DNA of 45,657 nt, from the IMG/VR virus record IMGVR_UViG_3300045988_020044, positions 1 to 45,657 of that record; one strand, given 5' to 3'. Position 1 is the first letter of the stretch, and the number at the start of each line of letters is the position of its first letter. This stretch comes from a virus. Below, in pieces: positions 2,538 through 43,650 of this stretch. A model generated the notes under the pieces. It had not been told where the DNA came from. It worked only from the letters and a program-made list of their open reading frames with translations, and did no database searches. Position numbers and translations under genes: made by a program.

Positions 2538-2566
2538 ATTATAGGTAGAGGGAAAAGGAAATACAA
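2538..2566 (-). promoter_or_regulatory. sigma70-like promoter for leftward ORF 2291..2491 (TTGTAT-17-TATAAT)
   Basis: rc of 2561-2566 is TTGTAT and rc of 2538-2543 is TATAAT. Confidence 0.5.
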
Positions 2567-2621
2567 TAGGTTGAATAAAAATCGCATTAAGAGATAAAAG
2601 CAAAGCAAGGAGGTGAAAAAT

Positions 2622-2711
2622 ATGAAACGCCATCCAATTATGGAATATGTGATTCCAGCAATTGTGGCAAGTGCGGCAACAGTTTTAATCCGTTTAGTGC
2701 TAGGGTGGTAA
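2622..2711 (+). CDS. small single-TM peptide (29 aa)
   Basis: Perfect AAGGAGGTGA SD at 2608-2617. Sequence MKRHPIMEYVIPAIVASAATVLIRLVLGW. Confidence 0.45.
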   Translation: MKRHPIMEYVIPAIVASAATVLIRLVLGW

Positions 2712-2741
2712 GAATGAAGCAATAATGAAAGGAGTAAATAT

Positions 2742-3071
2742 ATGAGCGAAGTTGACACTTACATAAAAGAAAATGCACAGGTTCATCAGTTTGCCGCAGA
2801 AGTGGCAAGAATCATATCAGGTATCCCACAGATGCCAGAGTTCTCAAATGAACGTTTGACAGTATCAGACGTGAGCAAAATGACAGGCATTCCTACACCA
2901 TCTGTCAGAGCAGGAATCATCTATGGATGGCTACCTATCGGCACGGCGTATCGTGGGAACAAAGTGATTCACGACAGAAAAGGTTCTGGCAGAATAGAAT
3001 TTGTTATCTCTCCAAGAAAGCTCTGGGAAGAGACAGGATATATCTGGAGAGGAAAAGAAGCATTAAAGTGA
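2742..3071 (+). CDS. HTH DNA-binding protein, excisionase/MerR-like (possible Xis)
   Basis: LTVSDVSKMTGIPTPSVRAGIIYGWLP resembles excisionase-type HTHs. No search was run. Confidence 0.5.
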   Translation: MSEVDTYIKENAQVHQFAAEVARIISGIPQMPEFSNERLTVSDVSKMTGIPTPSVRAGIIYGWLPIGTAYRGNKVIHDRKGSGRIEFVISPRKLWEETGYIWRGKEALK

Positions 3072-5045: not shown

Positions 5046-5242
5046 TGAGAGAACAAAACTGGTATGTATTTTTAATAGGCCGATACGCCTATCGGATAAG
5101 ATGTGAATCGTATTATATTCATCAATTATACCATGACAAAGCAATTCGTGGGTACAGGAAATGTTCAAGCAAAGAAGAAGCTATTTCTATGTGCTATGAC
5201 TATAACAAATATTTAAAAGGAGATAAAAAACATGGCAATTAA
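5042..5242 (+). CDS. hypothetical protein (66 aa)
   Basis: ORF track; overlaps its neighbours in operon style. Confidence 0.45.
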   Translation: MMREQNWYVFLIGRYAYRIRCESYYIHQLYHDKAIRGYRKCSSKEEAISMCYDYNKYLKGDKKHGN

Positions 5243-16979: not shown

Positions 16980-17756
16980 ATGCTTAGTCCAGAGTACTTG
17001 CGCAGAATCACAGAAGGCAGTGAACAGATTGCTGAGGAGTTACACCAGTATATTATATCTGAGATTGTATCTCGAATGATGGCAAGAATCGGAAGAGGTG
17101 AGGATTATATTCTGACCAATGCCGATGCGTGGAGAATCAGAACACTACAGGAATCTGGTGAACTGTTAGAAGACATTCTGGCAGAGCTGTCTAAATATAC
17201 CAAGCGGCAGCAGGAAGAACTAAAAGAGGCGTTTGAAGATGCCGGAATCACTGCCCTCGATTATGATGATAAGATATACAAGGCGGCAGGATTAAGCCCT
17301 GTACCGCTCGAACAGTCGCCAGCTATGATAAGACTCATGGAGCGAAATATGCTTGCAACCATGGGCGAGTGGAAGAACTTCACGAGAACAACTGCAAGTG
17401 CTGCTCAGGCGTTGTATATCAACCAGTGTGACCTTGCATACAATCATGTGATGACTGGGGCAGTTGGATATACGCAAGCGATTAGAGAAGCAGTTAACAA
17501 TGTTGTAAGCAATGGCGTTACGGTAACATATCCATCCGGCAGAAAAGATACAATTGAAACAGCGGTTGCACGCTCTGTCAGAACTGGCGTGGCACAGGCG
17601 TGCGCTGATATTCAGTTGGCAAGAATGAAAGAAATGGGATATGGCTTAGTGCTGACATCGGCGCATATAGGAAGCCGCCCAAGCCATGAAGTGTGGCAAG
17701 GGCAGGTATTCTCTATAGACTGGGAAAAATTAAAAGAAATCAAGCCTTATCTTTAA
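16980..17756 (+). CDS. head morphogenesis/minor capsid protein (SPP1 gp7 / Mu F-like), N-terminal fragment
   Basis: Ends ...SAHIGSRPSHEVWQGQVFS plus a 13-aa tail. The conserved continuation YPDF...CGVNCRHHF is found at 18719..19192. Confidence 0.75.
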   Translation: MLSPEYLRRITEGSEQIAEELHQYIISEIVSRMMARIGRGEDYILTNADAWRIRTLQESGELLEDILAELSKYTKRQQEELKEAFEDAGITALDYDDKIYKAAGLSPVPLEQSPAMIRLMERNMLATMGEWKNFTRTTASAAQALYINQCDLAYNHVMTGAVGYTQAIREAVNNVVSNGVTVTYPSGRKDTIETAVARSVRTGVAQACADIQLARMKEMGYGLVLTSAHIGSRPSHEVWQGQVFSIDWEKLKEIKPYL

Positions 17757-17907
17757 CAGAATCGAGATACAATGAAATTGCTTTATCGAGTATTTTGCTG
17801 ATAGGTATTCCAGTATCATCAGAATACGATTTTAATTTTTCATAAATTTCACGATCAATAGCATTTGATATTGCTACACGGTTTTTTAAACCTCTGTTAT
17901 TTGACAT
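17740..17907 (-). CDS. ribbon-helix-helix (CopG/Arc-like) DNA-binding protein (55 aa)
   Basis: GAAAGGAG SD. MSNNRGLKNRVAISNAIDREIYEKLKSYSDDTGIPISKILDKAISLYLDSVKDKA shows the strand-helix-helix pattern. Not in the ORF track (<60 aa). Confidence 0.65.
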   Translation of the reverse strand: MSNNRGLKNRVAISNAIDREIYEKLKSYSDDTGIPISKILDKAISLYLDSVKDKA

Positions 17908-17931
17908 TTTATTCAACTCCTTTCATACTAA

Positions 17932-18009
17932 AGTTTATCATAACTTTCAACTACTTGCAATTAAAATAAAATAATGATATAATTGAATGTAGATAAATGC
18001 AGTTGAAAG
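17932..18009. promoter_or_regulatory. back-to-back promoters sharing a palindromic TTGCAA -35, flanked by inverted repeat CTTTCAACT/AGTTGAAAG
   Basis: Plus strand: TTGCAA (17955-60), 17 nt, TGATATAAT (17975-83). Minus strand: TTGCAA, 17 nt, TAAACT (rc of 17932-37). Inverted repeat at 17944-52 and 18001-09. Confidence 0.6.
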
Positions 18010-18020
18010 GAGAAAGCACA

Positions 18021-18701
18021 ATGACTTTTGAAGAATTTTGTATTAAAAATGGTAAAAAAGAAAAACCACTTTCAGGGAAATCCTACAGATATTCTCACGG
18101 AATGGCAGAAACTCGATTATACAAAATATGGGCAGGCATGAAAATAAGAACATCTGAAAAGGCACAGCCTCATAACAAAGTGGCGTATTTTGATAGAGGA
18201 ATAACAGTATGTGATGAATGGAAAGAATTCAAACCTTTTTTATTATGGGCTTACACAAGCGGGTACGAAAAAGAACTTACAATAGACAGGATAGATGTTA
18301 ATAAAGGGTATTCTCCTGATAATTGTCGGTGGGTGCCATTAGAATGGCAAAACAACAACAAACAAAGCAGTTGGAAAATTAAATACCAAGGAGATACAAA
18401 AACCGTAGGTGAATGGGAACATTTCTTTGGCGTTCATCGTGAATATATAAGAAAAAGGCTTAATCATGGATGGACTTTTGACGAAATTGTAGAAAACATA
18501 AAAAATCCCACAACATTAAACAAGAACAATAAAAGTGGTATAAAGGGAGTTTTATTTGACAATAATCATTCAAAATGGAGAGCTTATATTTCTGTAGGCG
18601 GAAAACGCGTAGAAGATCGAGTTTTTAAAACCAAAGAAGAAGCAGTGATGGCAAGGAAACAAATGGAATTAAAATATTGGGGATATACAAATATTGAGTA
18701 A
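18021..18701 (+). CDS. HNH homing endonuclease with AP2 DNA-binding domain
   Basis: LTIDRIDVNKGYSPDNCRWV (HNH_3-like). GIKGVLFDNNHSKWRAYISVGGKRV...FKTKEEAVMARKQMELKYWG (AP2-like). Confidence 0.8.
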   Translation: MTFEEFCIKNGKKEKPLSGKSYRYSHGMAETRLYKIWAGMKIRTSEKAQPHNKVAYFDRGITVCDEWKEFKPFLLWAYTSGYEKELTIDRIDVNKGYSPDNCRWVPLEWQNNNKQSSWKIKYQGDTKTVGEWEHFFGVHREYIRKRLNHGWTFDEIVENIKNPTTLNKNNKSGIKGVLFDNNHSKWRAYISVGGKRVEDRVFKTKEEAVMARKQMELKYWGYTNIE

Positions 18702-18718
18702 TTATGGGGTGGCTATTT

Positions 18719-19192
18719 ATGAATAAAAAACATACTTATCCTGATTTTATTGAAAATTGTCATTATGGCGAAGCCGATGGAATATGTGGAGTAAATTGCA
18801 GGCATCATTTTTCGGTTTGGGTGGAAGGAATGCCGAATCCCTATGCGGAATTATCAGCGCAGGACAAAGCCGACAAAGGTAAACAGTACGAAAAAGAACA
18901 GCGGCAACGTACTTATGAACGGAGAATCCGCAAAACGAAGAGAGAAGTTCTCGGAATGCAAGCGGCGGTTAATAACTGCAAGGACGAACAGGCAAGATTT
19001 GCACTCCAACAAGACCTTGACCGGAAGTCTTATCTCTTACAGAAACAAAATGCTGCATACAAAGATTACTGCAAACAGAATGGCCTGAGGGAACTGCAAG
19101 ACCGCCTTATGATTGCGAAGTGGAACCGTCAGAACGCCGCAAAAGCCAGAGGAGCGGCAAAGAGATATAAAACAGCAAAGGGGATTGACTGA
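18719..19192 (+). CDS. head morphogenesis/minor capsid protein, C-terminal fragment
   Basis: MNKKHTYPDFIENCHYGEADGICGVNCRHHF. GGGGTGG SD lies 6 nt before ATG 18719 (an alternative ATG is at 18704). Confidence 0.7.
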   Translation: MNKKHTYPDFIENCHYGEADGICGVNCRHHFSVWVEGMPNPYAELSAQDKADKGKQYEKEQRQRTYERRIRKTKREVLGMQAAVNNCKDEQARFALQQDLDRKSYLLQKQNAAYKDYCKQNGLRELQDRLMIAKWNRQNAAKARGAAKRYKTAKGID

Positions 19193-19578
19193 TGGATAGA
19201 TGGGAATATTTCAATCCAAATCCTGTTAAGGATAAGAGAACAGGAGATTGCGTTGTCCGGGCAATATGTAAAGCAACTGGCTTCGACTGGGAAACAGTAT
19301 TCGCCGGATTAATGATACAGGCATGTACTCTGTCAGATATGCCGAGCGCAAATTATGTCTGGGGAGCGTACCTCTATAAGCATGGATACAGGCGAAAACT
19401 GATTGAACAGTCGGAGCGATATATTTATACAGTCAATGACTTTTGCGCAGATCATCCAACAGGCACATACATTCTCTGTATAGATGGTCATGTGGTGACA
19501 GTGCAAGAAGGCAAATATTTCGATACATGGAATAGCGGAAACGAAATACCGATTTATTATTGGGAAAAAAATGGATAA
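19192..19578 (+). CDS. hypothetical protein with a papain-like Cys...His...Asp pattern (putative cysteine peptidase/amidase)
   Basis: TGDCVVRAI ... IDGHVVTV ... YFDTW; assignment is tentative. Confidence 0.35.
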   Translation: MDRWEYFNPNPVKDKRTGDCVVRAICKATGFDWETVFAGLMIQACTLSDMPSANYVWGAYLYKHGYRRKLIEQSERYIYTVNDFCADHPTGTYILCIDGHVVTVQEGKYFDTWNSGNEIPIYYWEKNG

Positions 19579-19588
19579 ATATCCACTA

Positions 19589-20143
19589 TTATGTTTTATT
19601 GTATTTCCACACAAAACCTTTGTGAGTTCGACGTTCACCACGACAGCAACGACTGATGCTATCTTTTCGACCGTTTACGTGGTCTGCGGCATCTTCTGCG
19701 CAACTCCACTCAGCGATAAAATGATTGTTTAAGTCATATTGATAAACAACTTTTGCTCTTGGACTGTTTCCTCTCTTATAATTTCCATGAGGAGGGACAG
19801 AAGCGGAGCGCAATCCTGTATTTATTGCATGAAAAGTGTTTTCTTGTTTCGTGACCCATTCAAGATTATCAACAGTATTGTTTTTCTTGTTCCCGTCAAT
19901 ATGATTCACTACTTCTTTTTGTTCCACGTTCGGAATAAATGCCTCTGCAACAAGGCGGTGAACGAGATAGTTCTTACGTTTGTAATTAACAACAAGTGTT
20001 ACTCTATCGTAACCATCGTTTTCAAAAGGAGTCAAATACTTGCATCCTTTATTGTAATTTCTCCTTGCACTAATAATATTGCCAAGATTGCTTATTTTGT
20101 ATAATCCTTCATAACCGACAACATCTTTCCAAATTTCTTGCAT
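19589..20143 (-). CDS. free-standing HNH homing endonuclease (NUMOD4 plus HNH_3)
   Basis: EIWKDVVGYEGLYKISNLGNI and VNHIDGNKKNNTVDNLEWVT. Paralog of 31168..31710. Confidence 0.85.
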   Translation of the reverse strand: MQEIWKDVVGYEGLYKISNLGNIISARRNYNKGCKYLTPFENDGYDRVTLVVNYKRKNYLVHRLVAEAFIPNVEQKEVVNHIDGNKKNNTVDNLEWVTKQENTFHAINTGLRSASVPPHGNYKRGNSPRAKVVYQYDLNNHFIAEWSCAEDAADHVNGRKDSISRCCRGERRTHKGFVWKYNKT

Positions 20144-20286
20144 AAAAATAACACCTGTCCTTTCAGTGTGCGTGTCCTATTGATAAATGTACGGAAATCT
20201 CTAGGACATGAGACTTTCGGGAGCTACCCTATCCGTACACAAATATTATATCACAAATCAATGAAATATTAAAGAGGTATATCAAT

Positions 20287-20592
20287 ATGCATATTATTGA
20301 AGCAATACAAACAATTCTATCAATTTGTGGTGGCATTTCTATCATAGGAGGGGCGGCAGCTGTAATCTTTAAGTGGATTACACCGGCATTCCGACTTAAT
20401 AAGCGAGTAGAGACACTGGAAGAGCATGACAAGCGAGATTACGAGAGTCTTCAGAGGATTGCAGAACGAGATTCATTAATTCTGGAAGTGTTATCAACCA
20501 TGCTGGACAGTCAGATCAGTGGGAATAATGTGGAGGAATTAAAAAAAACAAAACAGAAGCTTACAAATTATCTTGCACAGAATCAACGTTAA
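20287..20592 (+). CDS. N-terminal-TM, coiled-coil protein (BhlA/holin-like architecture)
   Basis: ILSICGGISIIGGAAAVIF TM segment, then a charged helical region. Confidence 0.45.
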   Translation: MHIIEAIQTILSICGGISIIGGAAAVIFKWITPAFRLNKRVETLEEHDKRDYESLQRIAERDSLILEVLSTMLDSQISGNNVEELKKTKQKLTNYLAQNQR

Positions 20593-24066: not shown

Positions 24067-24139
24067 TGAAATATAGCGCAGTTGGTAGAGCAACATCCGC
24101 ATAGGGTGCGTGTCGGCGGTTCGATTCCGCCTATTTCAT
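24067..24139 (+). tRNA. tRNA with CAU anticodon (Met/Ile2-type) but G at position 33
   Basis: Acceptor TGAAATA/TATTTCA, D-arm GCGC-AGTTGGTA-GAGC, anticodon loop CGCATAG, T-arm GGCGG-TTCGATT-CCGCC. No encoded CCA. Confidence 0.65.
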
Positions 24140-30499: not shown

Positions 30500-31000
30500 A
30501 TGGCTGCTGATGGCTCAGTCATTATTGATACCAGAATGGACACATCAGGCGTGCAAAACGGTGTATCAGCAATCAGACAGTCTTTTAACGGACTTGGCAG
30601 CGTAGTAAAAAAAATAGGCATACTGATTGGCGGAGCATTCGCAATTGGGAAACTGGCCCAGTTTGGGAAAGAGTGCGTAGAACTTGGCTCTAATCTGGCA
30701 GAAGTGCAGAACGTGGTTGATGTTACATTTACAACCATGTCTGATAAGGTAAACGAATTTGCGAAGAACGCCATGACCTCAGCCGGACTGTCAGAAACGA
30801 TGGCGAAACAATATGTTGGTACATTCGGAGCAATGTCTAAGTCGTTCGGATTTTCAGAACAGCAGGCTTATGATATGTCAACGGCTCTGACACAGCTAAC
30901 TGGTGATGTGGCATCATTTTACAACATTAGTCAGGACTTGGCTTATATAAAACTGAAGTCAGTTTTTACAGGAGAAACGGAAACACTTAAAGACTTGGGT
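30500..31000 (+). CDS. tape measure protein, exon 1 (167 codons)
   Basis: Ends ...KSVFTGETETLKDLG. The conserved TMP core continues at 31900. Confidence 0.8.
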
Positions 31001-31167
31001 TAACAATTAGCTCCCTTACACAGCAATGTGTATTGAATAACATGGTGAACGAAGAAATCTTCGGTGTGTTGCTTTATGAGCAATGCTAACGGTAAAAGCC
31101 TAAAATTATTTAAAAAACTTGTGGTTATGACACCTATATGATATAATATTTATAGGAGGTGATTTCC

Positions 31168-31710
31168 ATGAGTGAAGAAATTTGGAAAGATATTAACGGC
31201 TACGAAGGTCTGTATCAAGTAAGCAATCTGGGAAGAATAAAAAGTCTTGAGCGTAGATGCAAGGCAAAATGGTATACAAGAAAAGTACCAGAGAAAATTT
31301 ATTCTCCTGCGCTTGATACTTACGGTTATCCAATAGTCTCTTTGCATAAAGACGGCAAAAAGAAAACAATTACAATTCATAAATTGGTTGCAAATGCTTT
31401 TCTTGAAAAGCCGGACGGTTGCAATTCTATTAATCACATTGACGAAAACAAGCAGAATAATTGCGTTGAAAATCTTGAATGGTGTACTGTTCAAGAAAAC
31501 AATGCTTATGGAACGAGAGTAGAACGATTAAGAAAAACTCAGCAAAGAGCGGTTCTACAATGTGATTTAGATGGAAATGTAATTAGAGAATGGGAGGGGA
31601 TGAACTTCCTTTGTAGAGAAACAGGATATGACCAAGGCTTAATATCTAAAGTATGCAATAATGTTCACAGACATCGTACTGCATATGGATTCAAATGGAA
31701 ATTTAAATAA
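31168..31710 (+). CDS. HNH homing endonuclease (NUMOD4 plus HNH_3), intron-encoded
   Basis: EEIWKDINGYEGLYQVSNLGRI and INHIDENKQNNCVENLEWCT; GGAGGTG SD. Confidence 0.85.
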   Translation: MSEEIWKDINGYEGLYQVSNLGRIKSLERRCKAKWYTRKVPEKIYSPALDTYGYPIVSLHKDGKKKTITIHKLVANAFLEKPDGCNSINHIDENKQNNCVENLEWCTVQENNAYGTRVERLRKTQQRAVLQCDLDGNVIREWEGMNFLCRETGYDQGLISKVCNNVHRHRTAYGFKWKFK

Positions 31711-31737
31711 TCATGGCAATACCGTGCTAAGCATCGA

Positions 31738-31763
31738 AGAGTCTCAATAAGAGGCTCTTTTTT
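31738..31763 (+). terminator. terminator-like hairpin plus T-run inside the intron, after the HNH ORF
   Basis: Stem AGAGTCTC/GAGGCTCT with loop AATAA, then TTTTTT. Confidence 0.45.
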
Positions 31764-31899
31764 GATGAAAGTGTAACGACTATTCCGTAAGGAAGTAGGT
31801 TTAGGGTGAAATTCCCTATTCCGAAGTGCCATGCATCCTATTTGGATGAAGAGATAGTCTACTCCCCTAATAAATATCGGGAAACCGAGGGTATAAAGG

Positions 31900-34509
31900 G
31901 TCGTTATGACACAAAGCGCGCTTGACCAGTACGCACTTGCAAACGGCTATGGCAAAACCACATCTGCCATGACTGAACAGGAGAAAGTGGCCCTCCGTTT
32001 GGCTTTTGTGCAGAAACAGCTATCTGCCGCATCCGGTGATTTCATTCGAACATCTGGCTCATGGGCAAACCAGGTACGAGTGATGCAGTTACAGCTGCAA
32101 TCTCTCAAGGCAACAGTTGGACAGGGATTAATCAATCTCTTCACTCCTGTCCTGAAAGTTATTAACACTCTTCTTGGAAAATTGGCAACATTGGCAAACG
32201 CATTTAAGTCATTTACGGAGTTAATCACTGGTAAGAAATCTTCTGGCCAGACAGGTGCAAGTGGCGCAGGTCTTGTCGGAACAGACCCGATGGCTGATAC
32301 GGCAGACCAATATGGAGATGCCGCCGACAACGCCGAGAAACTGGCAGATGCGACAAATGATACAGCAGATGCAACTAAGAAAGCTACTAAGGCGGCAAAA
32401 GGATATCTTAGCCCTCTTGACGAAATAAATAATTACTCAACTGATAAAAGTGTGGATTCGTCATCAAAAGTACCGGGTGCACCGGGCGCAACCGGCGGAC
32501 TTGCGGACAAAATGAAAGATGCTGTGCAAAACGTTGATTATGGAAAAGTAGCAGAGGGTGAGACAGTTCTTGATAAGATGTCAAAGCCGTTAGAGAAGAT
32601 AATCGACAGGTTTAAACAGCTGGCTAAGTTAATCGCAAAAGGATTCTGGGATGGGTTAGGAGACTACGAGCCGATTTTTGAAGGAATAAAAAAGGACCTT
32701 GATTCTATACGGAAATCCTTAAAGGATATCTTCACTGACCCGGAAGTTACCAAAGCAGCAAATAATTTTTTCGATTCATATGCATATGCAATTGGGCAAG
32801 TTGCTGGTTCATTCGCCAGAATTGGATTGACAATTGCGCAAAACATCATAGGTGGAATCGAGAAGTTTCTGAGTCAAAACGTACAAAGAATAAAAAACTA
32901 TCTGATAGATATGTTTAATATCGGCTCTGAAATTGCACAAATAGGCGGAAACCTTGCAGTTGCTTTTGCCGATGTTTTCTCAGTTTTTGGCGGAGAAACT
33001 GCGCAACAAATTACAGCGAATTTAATTGGAATCTTTGCTGAAATTGGAATGGCTCTTACGGAAACAGCTGCGAAACTTGGCAGAGATATTCTGAACATGA
33101 TTGCGCAGCCTTTTATCGACAATAAGGACATTTTAAAGTCAGCAATCGAGGGTAGCCTCGGAGTAATAGAAACCGTAACAAGTAGTGTTCTAACAGTTAT
33201 TCAAACCCTTAGCGACGCAATATCGAGGTTATACGATGAACATATAAAACCGTTTTTTGATTCTATAGCGAATGGATTATCAAGCATATTTGAGACTCTG
33301 ATAACTGGATACAACACCTATATTCTTCCAGTTCTGCAAGGATTGGCAGAGCAATTCAAAGGGCTATTAGAGGGACCATTAGGGGACGCAATTTTAAAGA
33401 TAGAAACATTTCTCGGAAAACTCATTGATTCTCTGAAACTTCTATGGGAATCGGTGTTAGCTCCTTTAATTAACTGGATAATCGCGAATTTGCTTCCGGT
33501 TGTTGCGAAGATAATTGATGTTGTGGGGACTACAGCAATGAAAGTGATAAAATCACTGATTAAAATAATCGGTGATGTGGCAGATACACTGAGCGGAATC
33601 ATCGATTTTCTTGTTGGTGTCTTTACGGGAGACTGGAAGCTGGCTTGGCAGGGAATAAAAGAAATTGCAAGTGGAGTATGGAATCTTATCAAGGACGTTA
33701 TATCGGGTGCATGGAGTGCGATTAAAAGCATAATAAAAGGTGCACTGGGTATAATAAAAAGTGTTATTAACACTGCATGGAATGCGATCAAAACAGCAAC
33801 TTCGACGGTCTGGAATGCGATTAAAAAGACTCTTTCTGGATTATGGAACGCTCTTAAAACCACAGTAAAAACAGTGTTTAATACAATAAAGACTAAGGTC
33901 GTAGGCGTGTGGGATAACATAAAGGATAAAACATCCCAAGTATGGAAAAGCGTTACTACCTTTATATCTACTAAGGTCGAAGCAATAAAAACTGCTATTA
34001 CTGATAAATTTAACGCCGCCAGAGATGCAGTAAAATCTGCGTTCGAGAGAATTGTGGACTTTATTAAAAAGCCAATTAATAAAGCAATAAGCATTGTTAA
34101 TAGCGCAGTCGGAATGATTAATAGTGCGATTGGCGGAATTGAATCGGCTTTCTCCTTTGGGCCTTGGACTGTTCCAACACCGTTTGGTTCAAAGACTATT
34201 GGATTTCATGCAACATTTCCACGTATCGGAACTATCCCATATCTGGCCAGTGGCGCAGTTATTCCACCACGAAGCGAATTCCTTGCGGTATTAGGCGACC
34301 AGAAAAAGGGTAATAACTTGGAAGCACCGGAAAGCCTGTTACGTCAGATTGTCCGGGAGGAATCAGGAAAAGGACAGGGAGATGGAAATACCTACAATGT
34401 TACAGTTAATGCATCTGGCAGAAAACTGTTAGACATTATCATTGATGAAGCAGAACTTAGGAGACGTAGAAATGGCGGTCAGAATCCATTCTTGTTAGGA
34501 GGTGTGTAA
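31900..34509 (+). CDS. tape measure protein, exon 2
   Basis: In-frame GTC GTT ATG... gives VVMTQSALDQYALANGYGK...GDFIRTSGSWANQVRV, the typical TP901-type TMP core. Confidence 0.8.
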   Translation, partial: VVMTQSALDQYALANGYGKTTSAMTEQEKVALRLAFVQKQLSAASGDFIRTSGSWANQVRVMQLQLQSLKATVGQGLINLFTPVLKVINTLLGKLATLANAFKSFTELITGKKSSGQTGASGAGLVGTDPMADTADQYGDAADNAEKLADATNDTADATKKATKAAKGYLSPLDEINNYSTDKSVDSSSKVPGAPGATGGLADKMKDAVQNVDYGKVAEGETVLDKMSKPLEKIIDRFKQLAKLIAKGFWDGLGDYEPIFEGIKKDLDSIRKSLKDIFTDPEVTKAANNFFDSYAYAIGQVAGSFARIGLTIAQNIIGGIEKFLSQNVQRIKNYLIDMFNIGSEIAQIGGNLAVAFADVFSVFGGETAQQITANLIGIFAEIGMALTETAAKLGRDILNMIAQPFIDNKDILKSAIEGSLGVIETVTSSVLTVIQTLSDAISRLYDEHIKPFFDSIANGLSSIFETLITGYNTYILPVLQGLAEQFKGLLEGPLGDAILKIETFLGKLIDSLKLLWESVLAPLINWIIANLLPVVAKIIDVVGTTAMKVIKSLIKIIGDVADTLSGIIDFLVGVFTGDWKLAWQGIKEIASGVWNLIKDVISGAWSAIKSIIKGALGIIKSVINTAWNAIKTATSTVWNAIKKTLSGLWNALKTTVKTVFNTIKTKVVGVWDNIKDKTSQVWKSVTTFISTKVEAIKTAITDKFNAARDAVKSAFERIVDFIKKPINKAISIVNSAVGMINSAIGGIESAFSFGPWTVPTPFGSKTIGFHATFPRIGTIPYLASGAVIPPRSEFLAVLGDQKKGNNLEAPESLLRQIVREESGKGQGDGNTYNVTVNASGRKLLDIIIDEAELRRRRNGGQNPFLLGGV

Positions 34510-41996: not shown

Positions 41997-42320
41997 TCAT
42001 GTTTCTTATAACATATTGTATCATTTCGTTTTGTAAATCCTATTAGTTCGTTGGACACACGTTAGTCACAAATAAAAAAAATCATTTCCTAACTGAATAT
42101 CCTCTAAAGTACTGTATTTAAAGGACTTTCTGACATTTGCATAGTTCTAATTAATGCCCTAATTGAATACAATTAGAATAATGAAAATGAAATGTGGGAA
42201 ATCCTTGCAAAATCGCTGAAAACGTTGATTTTAATAGGGTTTCCGGCATTTCGATAATGATATTTCGGTTGTTTTAGAAAGATTAAAATAGGTTCCGTTA
42301 GTCACAGTTAGTCACAAATG
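41997..42320. other. putative attP region with GTTAGTCACA repeats
   Basis: AT-rich non-coding DNA next to int. GTTAGTCACA at 42061, 42297 and 42307. TAATTG-aata-CAATTA dyad at about 42161-42176. Confidence 0.35.
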
Positions 42321-43476
42321 GAACTTTTATCTTTTCTATTTCTGTCCGAAGTTCTTCCAGTGTCCTGTGGCCGTACACAGCATTTGTAACATCTCCGCCA
42401 AAGGAGTGGCCGAGCATTCGCTTTCGGTCATTCTCACGGACGCCATATTTTTCACACAGTGCGGAAAAGGTGTGTCGACAGTCGTGTGGTGTGTGTTTCG
42501 GATCGCCGACTATTTTTAATCGTTCCAGTGTAGGATAGAATAATGCTTTTCTGTGGTGTTGCTGAGTATATACGCATAGTTTACCATCTTGTGTCAGTAC
42601 TTTCTGTTCGACAAAACGGTATATAGCAGAATGTATCGGAACAATTCTGTTTTTACCGGCTTTTGTTTTGATTCCACCTTGAAAGTATTTCTCTTCCAGG
42701 TTGGTTGTGAGTTTTAACACTTCCCCGATTCGCCAGCCAGAATAGCACATGATAAGAATGAGCTGCACTTCTGGATCGTCGGCATTATTCCACAGCACTT
42801 GCATCTCCTGATCAGAAAATGGCGTTCCATGTTCGGTGTCATTATCAGCGTTGACATGGACATATAACGCCTTATTTTCCGTTACGATTTCTGAGTAAAC
42901 AGCATATTTATACATCTGCTTGAACAGCGTAAGAATTGCCATAAGGCTCTGACGCTTTAACGGGCAGTCATCAATTACCTTTTGCAGATCAGGCGCTTTT
43001 AAATCCTCAAAGATACGATTGTACAGAGTCGTGCAGTTCGAGTAAGCGGTCTGGTAAGCTATTTTTGAACTATAAGAAAGTTTTGAACCCTCTGGAAATT
43101 TCCATGCGTAAAACTTCTTATATACCTCTGAAAACGTCAATTTCTTGATTTCCGGGTGTTTATCCTCGACACCCTTGATTGTGTTGTAGTCAGCAATCAA
43201 GCGGCTTATAAGAGCATCTATGTCGGTTGTAGGTGATATCTCAAGGTCTCGTTCCATCCCTGGCTGATATGTTCCTGCCTTGTATGCGGTCAGTACAGTA
43301 AATCCTTTAATCCAGTCGTCTACATAGCAGATTGCAGGCGGTCGGACGGGTTTTCCTGTTGCGTCCAGTGTAGCTGGCGGATGTACCGCAAAACAATTTC
43401 TCCGGTTCTTGCCAAGATACCGGATAGAGCCAAAGTTATTCGGCAGTTTTGGATATTTCTTTCTTTTCTTCGCCAT
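42298..43476 (-). CDS. int: tyrosine integrase
   Basis: RIGEVLKL (Arg), HTPHDCRHTF (His-x-x-Arg), MLGHS and VYGHRT (Tyr). AGAGGA SD before the internal ATG at 43476. Confidence 0.9.
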   Translation of the reverse strand: MAKKRKKYPKLPNNFGSIRYLGKNRRNCFAVHPPATLDATGKPVRPPAICYVDDWIKGFTVLTAYKAGTYQPGMERDLEISPTTDIDALISRLIADYNTIKGVEDKHPEIKKLTFSEVYKKFYAWKFPEGSKLSYSSKIAYQTAYSNCTTLYNRIFEDLKAPDLQKVIDDCPLKRQSLMAILTLFKQMYKYAVYSEIVTENKALYVHVNADNDTEHGTPFSDQEMQVLWNNADDPEVQLILIMCYSGWRIGEVLKLTTNLEEKYFQGGIKTKAGKNRIVPIHSAIYRFVEQKVLTQDGKLCVYTQQHHRKALFYPTLERLKIVGDPKHTPHDCRHTFSALCEKYGVRENDRKRMLGHSFGGDVTNAVYGHRTLEELRTEIEKIKVPFVTNCD

Positions 43477-43613
43477 TTTTATTCCTCTTTTCTTTAAGTG
43501 GTTGTTTTGAGTATAAAAATAACAGCCGAACAAATTTTCTGTCTTGTTCGACTGCTCCGAAGATGATACAATATGTTTTGCCAGAATATTACATTTCTTC
43601 GGAGATGTATAAA

Positions 43614-43650
43614 CGCCGTCTCGGTACGCCAATGCCGGGGCGGTTTTTTT
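43614..43650. terminator. GC-rich hairpin flanked by an A-run and a T7 run (orientation ambiguous)
   Basis: CGCCGTCTCGG...CCGGGGCGG followed by TTTTTTT on the plus strand. On the minus strand it follows the zinc-ribbon gene. Confidence 0.45.

Follow-up and report, generated by a model that had tools for sequence, protein, structure and literature searches.

The window analysed here is the whole 45,657-nt stretch of the IMG/VR record IMGVR_UViG_3300045988_020044, which belongs to a temperate phage with an integrase gene at 42298-43632, and our subject is a two-gene cassette of about 1.0 kb that lies inside the minor capsid gene of this phage. On the plus strand, an N-terminal capsid fragment of 258 amino acids (16980..17756) is followed by a homing-endonuclease-like gene of 226 amino acids (18021..18701) and by a C-terminal capsid fragment (18704..19192, with an alternative start at 18719). 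A 55-amino-acid gene for an Arc-like ribbon-helix-helix (RHH) protein occupies the minus strand (17740..17907), and the two inserted genes diverge from a 113-bp bidirectional promoter/operator region between them (17908..18020).

Both capsid fragments were assigned to PF06152, phage minor capsid protein 2, and only jointly do they cover the profile, the N fragment matching positions 1-245 of 366 (E 3e-55; also phrog_581) and the C fragment positions 251-366 (E 1.5e-24). After the conserved ...WQGQVFS, the N fragment runs on for 13 extra codons, IDWEKLKEIKPYL (17715-17753), to which the aligned uninterrupted homologues have no counterpart, and conserved capsid sequence picks up again at KHTYPDF in the C fragment. 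Across lineages the tail is kept at the protein level, with a GAC/GAT change in it that is synonymous, and its motif [IV]DW[EN]K[LMV] is kept in lineages whose N fragments are 61-70% identical to that of the window. The C fragment has two possible starts, an ATG at 18704, which follows the nuclease stop codon by 2 nt (TAA-tt-ATG), and a second ATG at 18719, which follows it by 17 nt and has the Shine-Dalgarno (SD) sequence GGGGTGG ahead of it. In five of the six other lineages read, the SD and start of the C fragment likewise abut or overlap the nuclease stop, be it as an ATGA overlap (L067), as TGA-t-ATG (L113) or as an overlap of 8 nt (L112-type), and SD-like purine runs precede the starts in the window and in these three.

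When the split gene of the window is compared with that of L067, which is split as well, the N and C fragments have ratios of nonsynonymous to synonymous substitution rates (dN/dS) of 0.040 and 0.038, respectively, at a synonymous divergence (dS) of about 0.78. Judged by these ratios and by the SD and start beside the nuclease stop, the capsid gene is broken into two separately translated pieces, and both halves are working genes under strong purifying selection. The first-pass annotation had drawn this picture, from the 13-residue tail to the restart at 18719 some 17 nt behind the nuclease with its own SD and ATG, and the profile matches and the other lineages bear it out. The split gene accompanied by the RHH and nuclease genes recurs in lineages whose N fragments are 70%, 62%, 61% and 30% identical to that of the window, and when 24 contigs were read for each of the exact nuclease and RHH proteins, with ten places returned for each, all of these places (20/20) showed the split context. 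A pseudogene label would thus be wrong, because the split capsid gene is functional in pieces.

The RHH gene encodes a stand-alone protein of the RHH fold that matches PF12651 (RHH_3) over residues 12-51 (E 8.8e-15) and phrog_3180, "Arc-like repressor" (E 7e-19). Its SD, GAAAGGAG, which the first-pass annotation had noticed as strong, stands 8 nt ahead of the ATG (complement of 17917-17924), and at its 3' end the gene shares 17 nt with the end of the N fragment. With a dN/dS of 0.07-0.19 against seven relatives, and with the exact protein indexed in 1867 sample blocks, this short antisense frame should be annotated as a real gene. Between two types of the cassette its dS is 0.23, three times below the 0.78 of the flanking gene.

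The spacer between the two inserted genes is a near-palindrome centred on TTGCAA (17955-17960), a -35 hexamer which, being palindromic itself, can serve both strands. On the plus strand it is followed after 17 nt by TATAAT (17978-17983), with a TG extension at 17975-76, and this nuclease promoter, which agrees with the consensus at 10 of 12 positions with an extended -10, was picked up by the promoter scan. Read in the opposite direction, on the minus strand, TTGCAA is followed after 17 nt by TAAACT (complement of 17932-17937), a mirror-image promoter for the RHH gene that can be read in the sequence. The spacer contains several nested inverted repeats, among them operator-like arms at 17946-17963 and 17980-17997 and an outer 9-nt pair at 17944-17952 and 18001-18009; the outer pair had been singled out earlier as bracketing back-to-back promoters, and it is exact, but it is one repeat among several. 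The nuclease SD is again GAAAGGAG (18005-18012), and the mirrored SDs are perfectly complementary (CTCCTTTCA and TGAAAGGAG, at 17917-17925 and 18004-18012), a geometry that arises automatically in all related loci as well. The order of RHH start, SD, RHH -10, about 17 nt, TTGCAA, 17 nt, TG-n-TATAAT, SD and nuclease start is conserved in about 40 distinct loci and across all of the partner classes described below.

The product of the plus-strand gene matches phrog_374 (E 2e-49) and phrog_3377 (E 5e-44), both labelled "HNH endonuclease". Its N-terminal part contains an HNH-like beta-beta-alpha motif, TIDRID..N.CRW..Q..N (residues 86-112), and across 65 diverse homologues the Asp, Asn, Gln and Asn of this motif never vary. 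In an AlphaFold model built with 65 homologues (pLDDT 87), the C-terminal part adopts an AP2 DNA-binding fold (Foldseek match to 7et4, TEM1 AP2, probability 1.0, rmsd 2.4 Å), although the AP2 match is weak at the sequence level; the N-terminal domain, unlike the AP2 domain, gave no structural confirmation in Foldseek. A search of the PDB with the family profile returned a single weak match, to the HNH motif of I-HmuI (1u3e, E 0.42), in which VVDHKD..N.LRW..N aligns with TIDRID..N.CRW..N. The family counts 3064 homologues and is scattered in 642 phage records, and the exact protein of the window, which we refer to as type A, is indexed in 658 sample blocks; no nuclease of type A was found in the GTDB representative genomes.

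That the two genes were inserted is evident from sister phages. In the human-gut phages MT840013, MT835739 and MT839401, the flanking genes are 78-91% identical to the window at the DNA level and the insert is absent; homology stops at 17599 and resumes at 18836, so that 1237 bp of the window stand against 254 bp in the relatives, and MT840013 encodes an uninterrupted capsid protein of 409 amino acids. Alignment with the intact proteins from phages of Blautia, Faecalibacterium and Bacillus places the break in a short variable linker (RSGKS) between ...QG.xFS and KK[FY]P.F, that is, between positions 245 and 251 of the PF06152 profile. All 73 phage records matched by the junction peptide have a contiguous gene, and megablast and blastn searches of GenBank phages with the cassette returned distant HNH fragments only, the split form being absent there. 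The GC content drops from about 47% to 25-35% over 17700-18800, the longest and lowest-GC island of the window, and is 27% in the cassette against a window mean of 41%. The inserted frames are out of frame with the capsid gene, and the insert is not an intein.

Other insertions were seen in the same gene neighbourhood. In IMGVR_UViG_3300006201_000284 (L116), the same cassette of RHH and HNH-AP2 genes follows or precedes a minor capsid gene that appears to be unsplit, with the portal gene on its other side, and the cassette therefore has at least two insertion sites in this neighbourhood. In MT835739 (L001), an insertion of about 450 bp between the portal and minor capsid genes (2553-3004) contains a Cys-rich frame of 75 amino acids on the opposite strand (2696-2923).

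Evidence of movement comes from a comparison of the window, segment by segment, with nine other carriers of the type A nuclease. The portal segment is 77-81% identical to the window, and the body of the N fragment 82-86% identical in eight of the backbones and 99.7% in the ninth. The stretch 17600-18835, consisting of flank, tail, RHH gene, spacer, nuclease gene and flank, is 100% identical in all nine apart from one flank at 99.1%, and identity falls again to 88-98% in the body of the C fragment and to 85-97% in the next gene. The moving unit can be set at 17605..18846, which is identical or within a few bases among the type A carriers and includes the RHH gene; the first mismatches fall at 17604, 17594, 17588 and 17573 on the left and between 18847 and 19069 on the right, and about 110-350 bp of capsid flanks are carried along with the cassette at 100% identity. 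When backbones that have diverged share a core without differences, and the edges of this core are ragged, this is the signature of homing driven by a double-strand break with co-conversion of the flanks. The pattern thus indicates that the cassette is currently homing among human-gut phages, and the mobility that had been read from the window alone gains a comparative basis.

The nuclease gene can be exchanged while the remainder of the cassette is kept. In L067 and six other phages, the same site is occupied by a cassette with an RHH protein 96% identical to that of the window and a promoter region 97-98% identical at the DNA level, and with a different HNH-AP2 gene that is only about 30% identical; the divergence from the window sets in immediately behind the SD and stops at the codons for YPDF. 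To follow the RHH gene further, a profile of five RHH proteins was compared with IMG/VR, which gave 165 relatives, the best 80 of which were kept; 51 of these loci were not near-identical to the window, and 50 had upstream sequence. In all 50 evaluable viral loci a gene on the opposite strand starts close upstream of the RHH gene, typically at about 100 bp, and the RHH gene is usually the sole gene on its strand. The divergent partner is a nuclease or a recombinase in 49 of the 50. Sorted by clustering and by Pfam matches of representatives, the partners are TnpB (OrfB_IS605 and Cas12f1-like TNB domains, 18 loci), HNH-AP2 (10), GIY-YIG/NUMOD3 (10), classical HNH (4), serine recombinase (3), HNH_3 (2, one with NUMOD4), LAGLIDADG (1), a DUF723/DUF2726 nuclease-like protein (1) and an unknown protein (1).

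The same partners were found in 8 of 12 evaluable loci in Clostridia genomes and metagenome-assembled genomes, and the pairing extends to cultured phages, for example Bacillus phage IEBH, in which the TnpB gp72 lies beside the "Arc-like repressor" gp73. The RHH proteins that adjoin TnpB in phages are 59-73% identical to that of the window; at the upper end, the RHH protein of L122 (73%) adjoins a protein with OrfB_IS605 and Cas12f1-like_TNB domains. Across the loci compared, the block of RHH gene, operator and bidirectional promoter is a portable platform that has been recombined with many unrelated selfish nucleases. The first-pass annotation had described the RHH gene as dedicated to its endonuclease, and this has to be given up, since the platform stands beside at least eight unrelated nuclease or recombinase classes and the nuclease frame is exchanged at the very same site. 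As a separate observation, the contig L173, the phage of which also has a split capsid cassette, contains a second small antisense RHH gene (5094-5237, a weak RHH_1 match) by its portal gene.

The inverted repeats in the spacer come in several types. One has AACTAC-NN-GTAGTT inside the spacer of the nuclease promoter, a second AGTCC-N-GGACT, and a third TGTCAATTGACCGTCA, and in the type of the window one arm, CAACTAC(TTGCAATTA), is located at the -35 and the other, (TAATTGAAT)GTAG, on and behind the -10. These operator types cut across the partner classes, and what covaries with them is the N-terminal arm of the RHH protein and not the partner: the arm NRGLKNR goes with AACTAC/GTAGTT, NKDLKNR with AGTCC/GGACT, and NPNLKNRVIPNS with the third type. 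The covariation is comparative evidence that the RHH protein reads these repeats, and the matched variants are ready-made orthogonal repressor-operator pairs for testing.

We favor the hypothesis, to which we would give a probability of roughly three in four, that the insert is a free-standing and probably self-repressed homing cassette that has left the capsid protein encoded by genes in pieces. Several observations weigh against it. The RHH promoter agrees with the consensus at 8 of 12 positions and lies below the threshold of the promoter scan, and a scan for promoters and terminators found no terminator-like site bounding either cassette transcript. In four contigs from different samples (L195-L198) the ATG of the C fragment is replaced by ATA, with the following codons conserved. 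The comparison with phages lacking the insertion, from which the first-pass annotation expected a definition of the homing site, has yielded the intact sister alleles; an uninterrupted allele with donor-type flanks, sought in IMG/VR to fix the exact target site, was not found there. Finally, the N-terminal domain of the nuclease matched no Pfam HNH model, a search of the PDB with the single nuclease sequence gave no match, and an arginine (R90), invariant in the 65 diverse homologues, stands where I-HmuI has its catalytic His75.

The last of these points lead to the possibility that the HNH-like protein is catalytically dead and has another role, such as DNA binding, and that the cassette is spread by homologous recombination or by a nuclease acting in trans. 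The replacement of the general-base histidine, the missing Pfam match and the weakness of the similarity to I-HmuI and PacI would all suit such a protein, as would the presence of two other, canonical HNH_3 endonuclease genes in the same phage. We nevertheless consider it unlikely, given that the 100% identical cassette in nine diverged backbones, with its sharp but variable co-conversion ends, is the pattern expected of break-induced homing, that D, N, Q and N in the metal-binding motif remain invariant in the 65 homologues, and that the family, with more than 3000 members, is scattered among phages like other homing endonuclease genes. With an invariant D-R where HNH enzymes have D-H, the HNH-AP2 family either has an unusual active site or else is not a family of nucleases. 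Since the catalytic histidine is replaced, it is the homing signature and not the motif that suggests nuclease activity. The original call of an HNH-AP2 endonuclease agrees with the HNH families in PHROG and with the AP2 fold, and needs correcting for the arginine in the place of the catalytic histidine. I-HmuI of Bacillus phage SPO1 (PDB 1U3E) is matched weakly over the beta-beta-alpha motif and is intron-encoded, with NUMOD-type DNA-binding modules and a catalytic histidine, where the family in the window has AP2 and arginine.

We also considered that the main role of the RHH protein might be to inhibit the nuclease protein itself, in the manner of an antitoxin and as one half of an addiction module, instead of to repress transcription. 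Proteins of the RHH type are common type II antitoxins, and an archaeal RHH-TnpB pair has been proposed to be a toxin-antitoxin system with direct binding (PMC10691335). In the window and in all 50 related viral loci, however, the two genes are divergent and do not form a co-directional operon. One RHH subtype serves partners as unrelated in structure as TnpB, GIY-YIG, HNH and LAGLIDADG nucleases and a resolvase, which speaks against a specific contact between the two proteins. The element that changes together with the RHH protein is a DNA repeat in the promoter, and the Arc protein of IS605 binds and represses a promoter. An inhibitor of this kind seems to us quite improbable.

A group I intron or an IStron-like element would make the split only apparent, since a splice joining about 17714 to about 18721 would give back a full-length capsid protein (...WQGQVFS-NKKHTYPDF...) of about the length of the intact homologues. 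Arc-like open reading frames were first noticed within IStrons (10.1101/2023.11.20.567912), an HNH insertion in the tape-measure gene of the same window has a weak intron match, and the plus-strand RNA of 17715-18020 (306 nt) folds somewhat better than shuffled sequence (z -2.6). This modest score is explained by the promoter palindrome, which was all that the fold of the 306 nt gave. The 300 nt 5' of the nuclease frame consist of the antisense RHH gene (dN/dS of about 0.1) and the palindrome, at 25-31% GC, in agreement with the earlier view of this flank as mostly antisense coding sequence. Compared with the Rfam group I and group II models, the whole window gave no match at the gathering threshold, and relaxing the limit to E<=10 for 17500-19000 brought up none either, while the tape-measure insertion does yield a match, though a weak one, over the full length of Intron_gpI. 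Moreover, only 0-17 nt separate the nuclease stop from the next start, and the exchange of nuclease frames reaches to within this distance of the C fragment, with the end of the frame not conserved between nuclease types, so that no conserved 3' intron core is possible. Most lineages retain an SD and a start codon for the C fragment, and the tail of the N fragment is kept as protein. By these comparisons the insert is free-standing, as had been proposed from the sequence of the window alone in contrast to the tape-measure insertion, and an intron is very improbable.

The RHH gene could also be a regulator or moron of the usual phage kind, with no functional tie to an endonuclease gene that landed beside it by chance. 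In favour of this, a small antisense gene with a promoter of its own inside a late operon looks like a typical moron, and the PHROG label reads no more than "Arc-like repressor". The idea is hardly credible when the sister phages without the nuclease also lack the RHH gene, when this gene lies within the mobile tract of 100% identity and when, in 49 of 50 related viral loci, its divergent partner across the promoter that they share is a nuclease or a recombinase. An IS605-family transposon was rejected as a candidate, the partner being HNH-like/AP2, with no OrfB or Y1 transposase domain.

Two more endonuclease genes were noted in the window, neither of them accompanied by an RHH gene. The tape-measure gene is split (30500-31003 and 31906-34509, matching positions 162-298 and 305-1148 of phrog_1535) by a NUMOD4/HNH_3-type endonuclease gene (31159-31710), and just 3' of this frame lies a weak full-length match to Intron_gpI (31683-31881, 18 bits, E 0.077), which suggests that the tape-measure insertion may be a group I intron. 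The other endonuclease gene (NUMOD4, HNH_3 and NUMOD1; 19589-20143, minus strand) lies between two genes, and sister phages without it have about 72 bp in place of 19569-20346. A tRNA gene (24067-24139; Rfam tRNA, 40.7 bits) is located inside the structural gene region.

If the insert is a self-repressed homing cassette, its life cycle might be pictured as follows. The element, about 1.0 kb long, has entered the linker ...QG.xFS / KK[FY]P.F of a minor capsid gene, in a phage of the gut that is temperate. In a cell without RHH protein, a burst of nuclease would cut the cassette-less alleles of co-resident relatives. As the RHH protein accumulates, its dimers would bind the inverted repeats over the -35 and the -10, close both promoters and silence the nuclease. 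We infer such self-repression from the homology of the RHH protein with the Arc proteins of IS605 and P22 and from the covariation between arms and repeats. Silencing would spare the late structural operon from a strong constitutive promoter pair, and would matter because neither transcript is bounded by a terminator-like site; left unsilenced, one promoter would read into the late genes and the other would run antisense to the portal and terminase genes. Because the phage is temperate, the silencing would hold in the lysogen as well, and the nuclease would stay off there.

A second level of control may act on translation. Where late transcription reads through the cassette, the mRNA contains the complement of the RHH SD (17917-25), which is predicted to pair with the nuclease SD (18004-12), and the resulting hairpin could limit translation of the nuclease to its own transcript, which would fit with the independent SD that the C fragment has retained. 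The two capsid pieces would assemble non-covalently, and the element-derived tail might help in this, by analogy with the NrdA protein of Aeh1.

Both the splitting of genes and the pairing of a repressor with a nuclease are already known in outline, and the locus is a well-documented new example and not a new kind of system. The first-pass annotation had been unable to match the arrangement to any other, but it does have precedents. Arc-like RHH genes beside TnpB and homing endonucleases were described in a 2023 preprint (Zedaveinyte et al., 10.1101/2023.11.20.567912), and a 2026 preprint reports, from ChIP-seq and reporters, that the Arc protein of IS605 represses the tnpB/bidirectional promoter, with homing endonucleases again among the neighbours of the Arc group (Moon et al., 10.64898/2026.09.24.754181). 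The Arc proteins of this group that have been studied by experiment are WP_094548610.1 and WP_003367503.1. The arrangement in IS605 elements and IStrons resembles that of the window in the small RHH gene divergent from a selfish nuclease gene and in the bidirectional promoter with opposite motifs over the -35 and the -10. Here, the partner is an HNH-like/AP2 protein and not TnpB or TnpA, there is no transposon, omega-RNA or intron, the cassette splits an essential structural gene, and repression by the RHH protein is suggested by analogy.

The splitting of genes by free-standing endonuclease genes is known from mobA in T4 and mobE in Aeh1 (PMC2988022, PMC3045599), and in Aeh1 the tails that arose from the mobE insertion are essential for assembling the split NrdA (PMC3045599). 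The likeness to nrdA/mobE of the Aeromonas phage Aeh1 and to the T4 topoisomerase genes 39/60 with mobA lies in an essential gene cut into two translated genes with new terminal tails, in function without RNA or protein splicing, and in the movement of the insert with its flanks. Here, the nuclease is from a different family, the target is a head morphogenesis protein, and the cassette brings its control along, as host-type promoters and the gene of a probable repressor, where the known cases depend on RNA structure and on the middle or late promoters of the phage.

The proposed mode of control also recalls two other systems. In the immI region of phage P22, the RHH repressors Arc and Mnt act at the divergent promoters Pant and Pmnt. 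The likeness is in the RHH operator between or over the hexamers of back-to-back promoters and in a burst upon infection that is then shut off, but the target of P22 Arc is an antirepressor, with which it is transcribed together, and Arc does not travel in a mobile cassette. I-TevI autorepresses its own promoter, and the ribosome binding sites of I-TevI, mobE and the seg genes are sequestered in read-through transcripts (reviewed in PMC2988022). There, too, endonuclease expression is limited in a manner that spares the phage, and the hairpin predicted over the nuclease SD is comparable; the difference is that I-TevI itself moonlights as the repressor, whereas the cassette in the window encodes a separate DNA-binding protein.

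In two sister lineages the capsid gene has been altered further. The C fragment in L113-L115, L195-L198 and L124 is interrupted within the invariant CGANCRH motif, which is uninterrupted in the window (18775-18800), either by 5 nt (TGC GGA GCT TAG CC AAC TGT) or by 10 nt (GGA GCC CTACAAG GCT AAT). The interruption is flanked by alanine codons, and skipping from alanine to alanine restores CGANCRH exactly. Purifying selection is seen on both sides in different frames, the proportions of synonymous and nonsynonymous differences (pS/pN) being 0.74/0.22 before the shift and 0.47/0.05 after it, and the downstream part is without a canonical start. A short translational hop or a frameshift in these interrupted C fragments is possible, and the interruption resembles, in miniature, that of T4 gene 60 with mobA (10.1101/2022.08.31.505936).

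As a tentative extension, which we put forward with less than even confidence, the persistent unit may be the block of RHH gene, operator and promoter itself, a "burst then silence" chassis onto which nucleases and recombinases are swapped. Such a chassis would permit life in essential late genes and in Clostridia prophages, and some sister lineages would be on their way toward a state like that of T4 gene 60.

Our findings add to the known associations of Arc-like proteins with homing endonucleases a case in which the evidence points to ongoing homing and in which the target is an essential head gene, and they document the replacement of the nuclease frame on a constant platform as well as the covariation of RHH arms and operators across partner classes. 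An Arc-type repressor, known for its control of TnpB, is here attached to a putative homing endonuclease of the classical kind. The modular nature of this regulatory block bears on how selfish nucleases limit the cost to their hosts and on how nuclease genes are exchanged.

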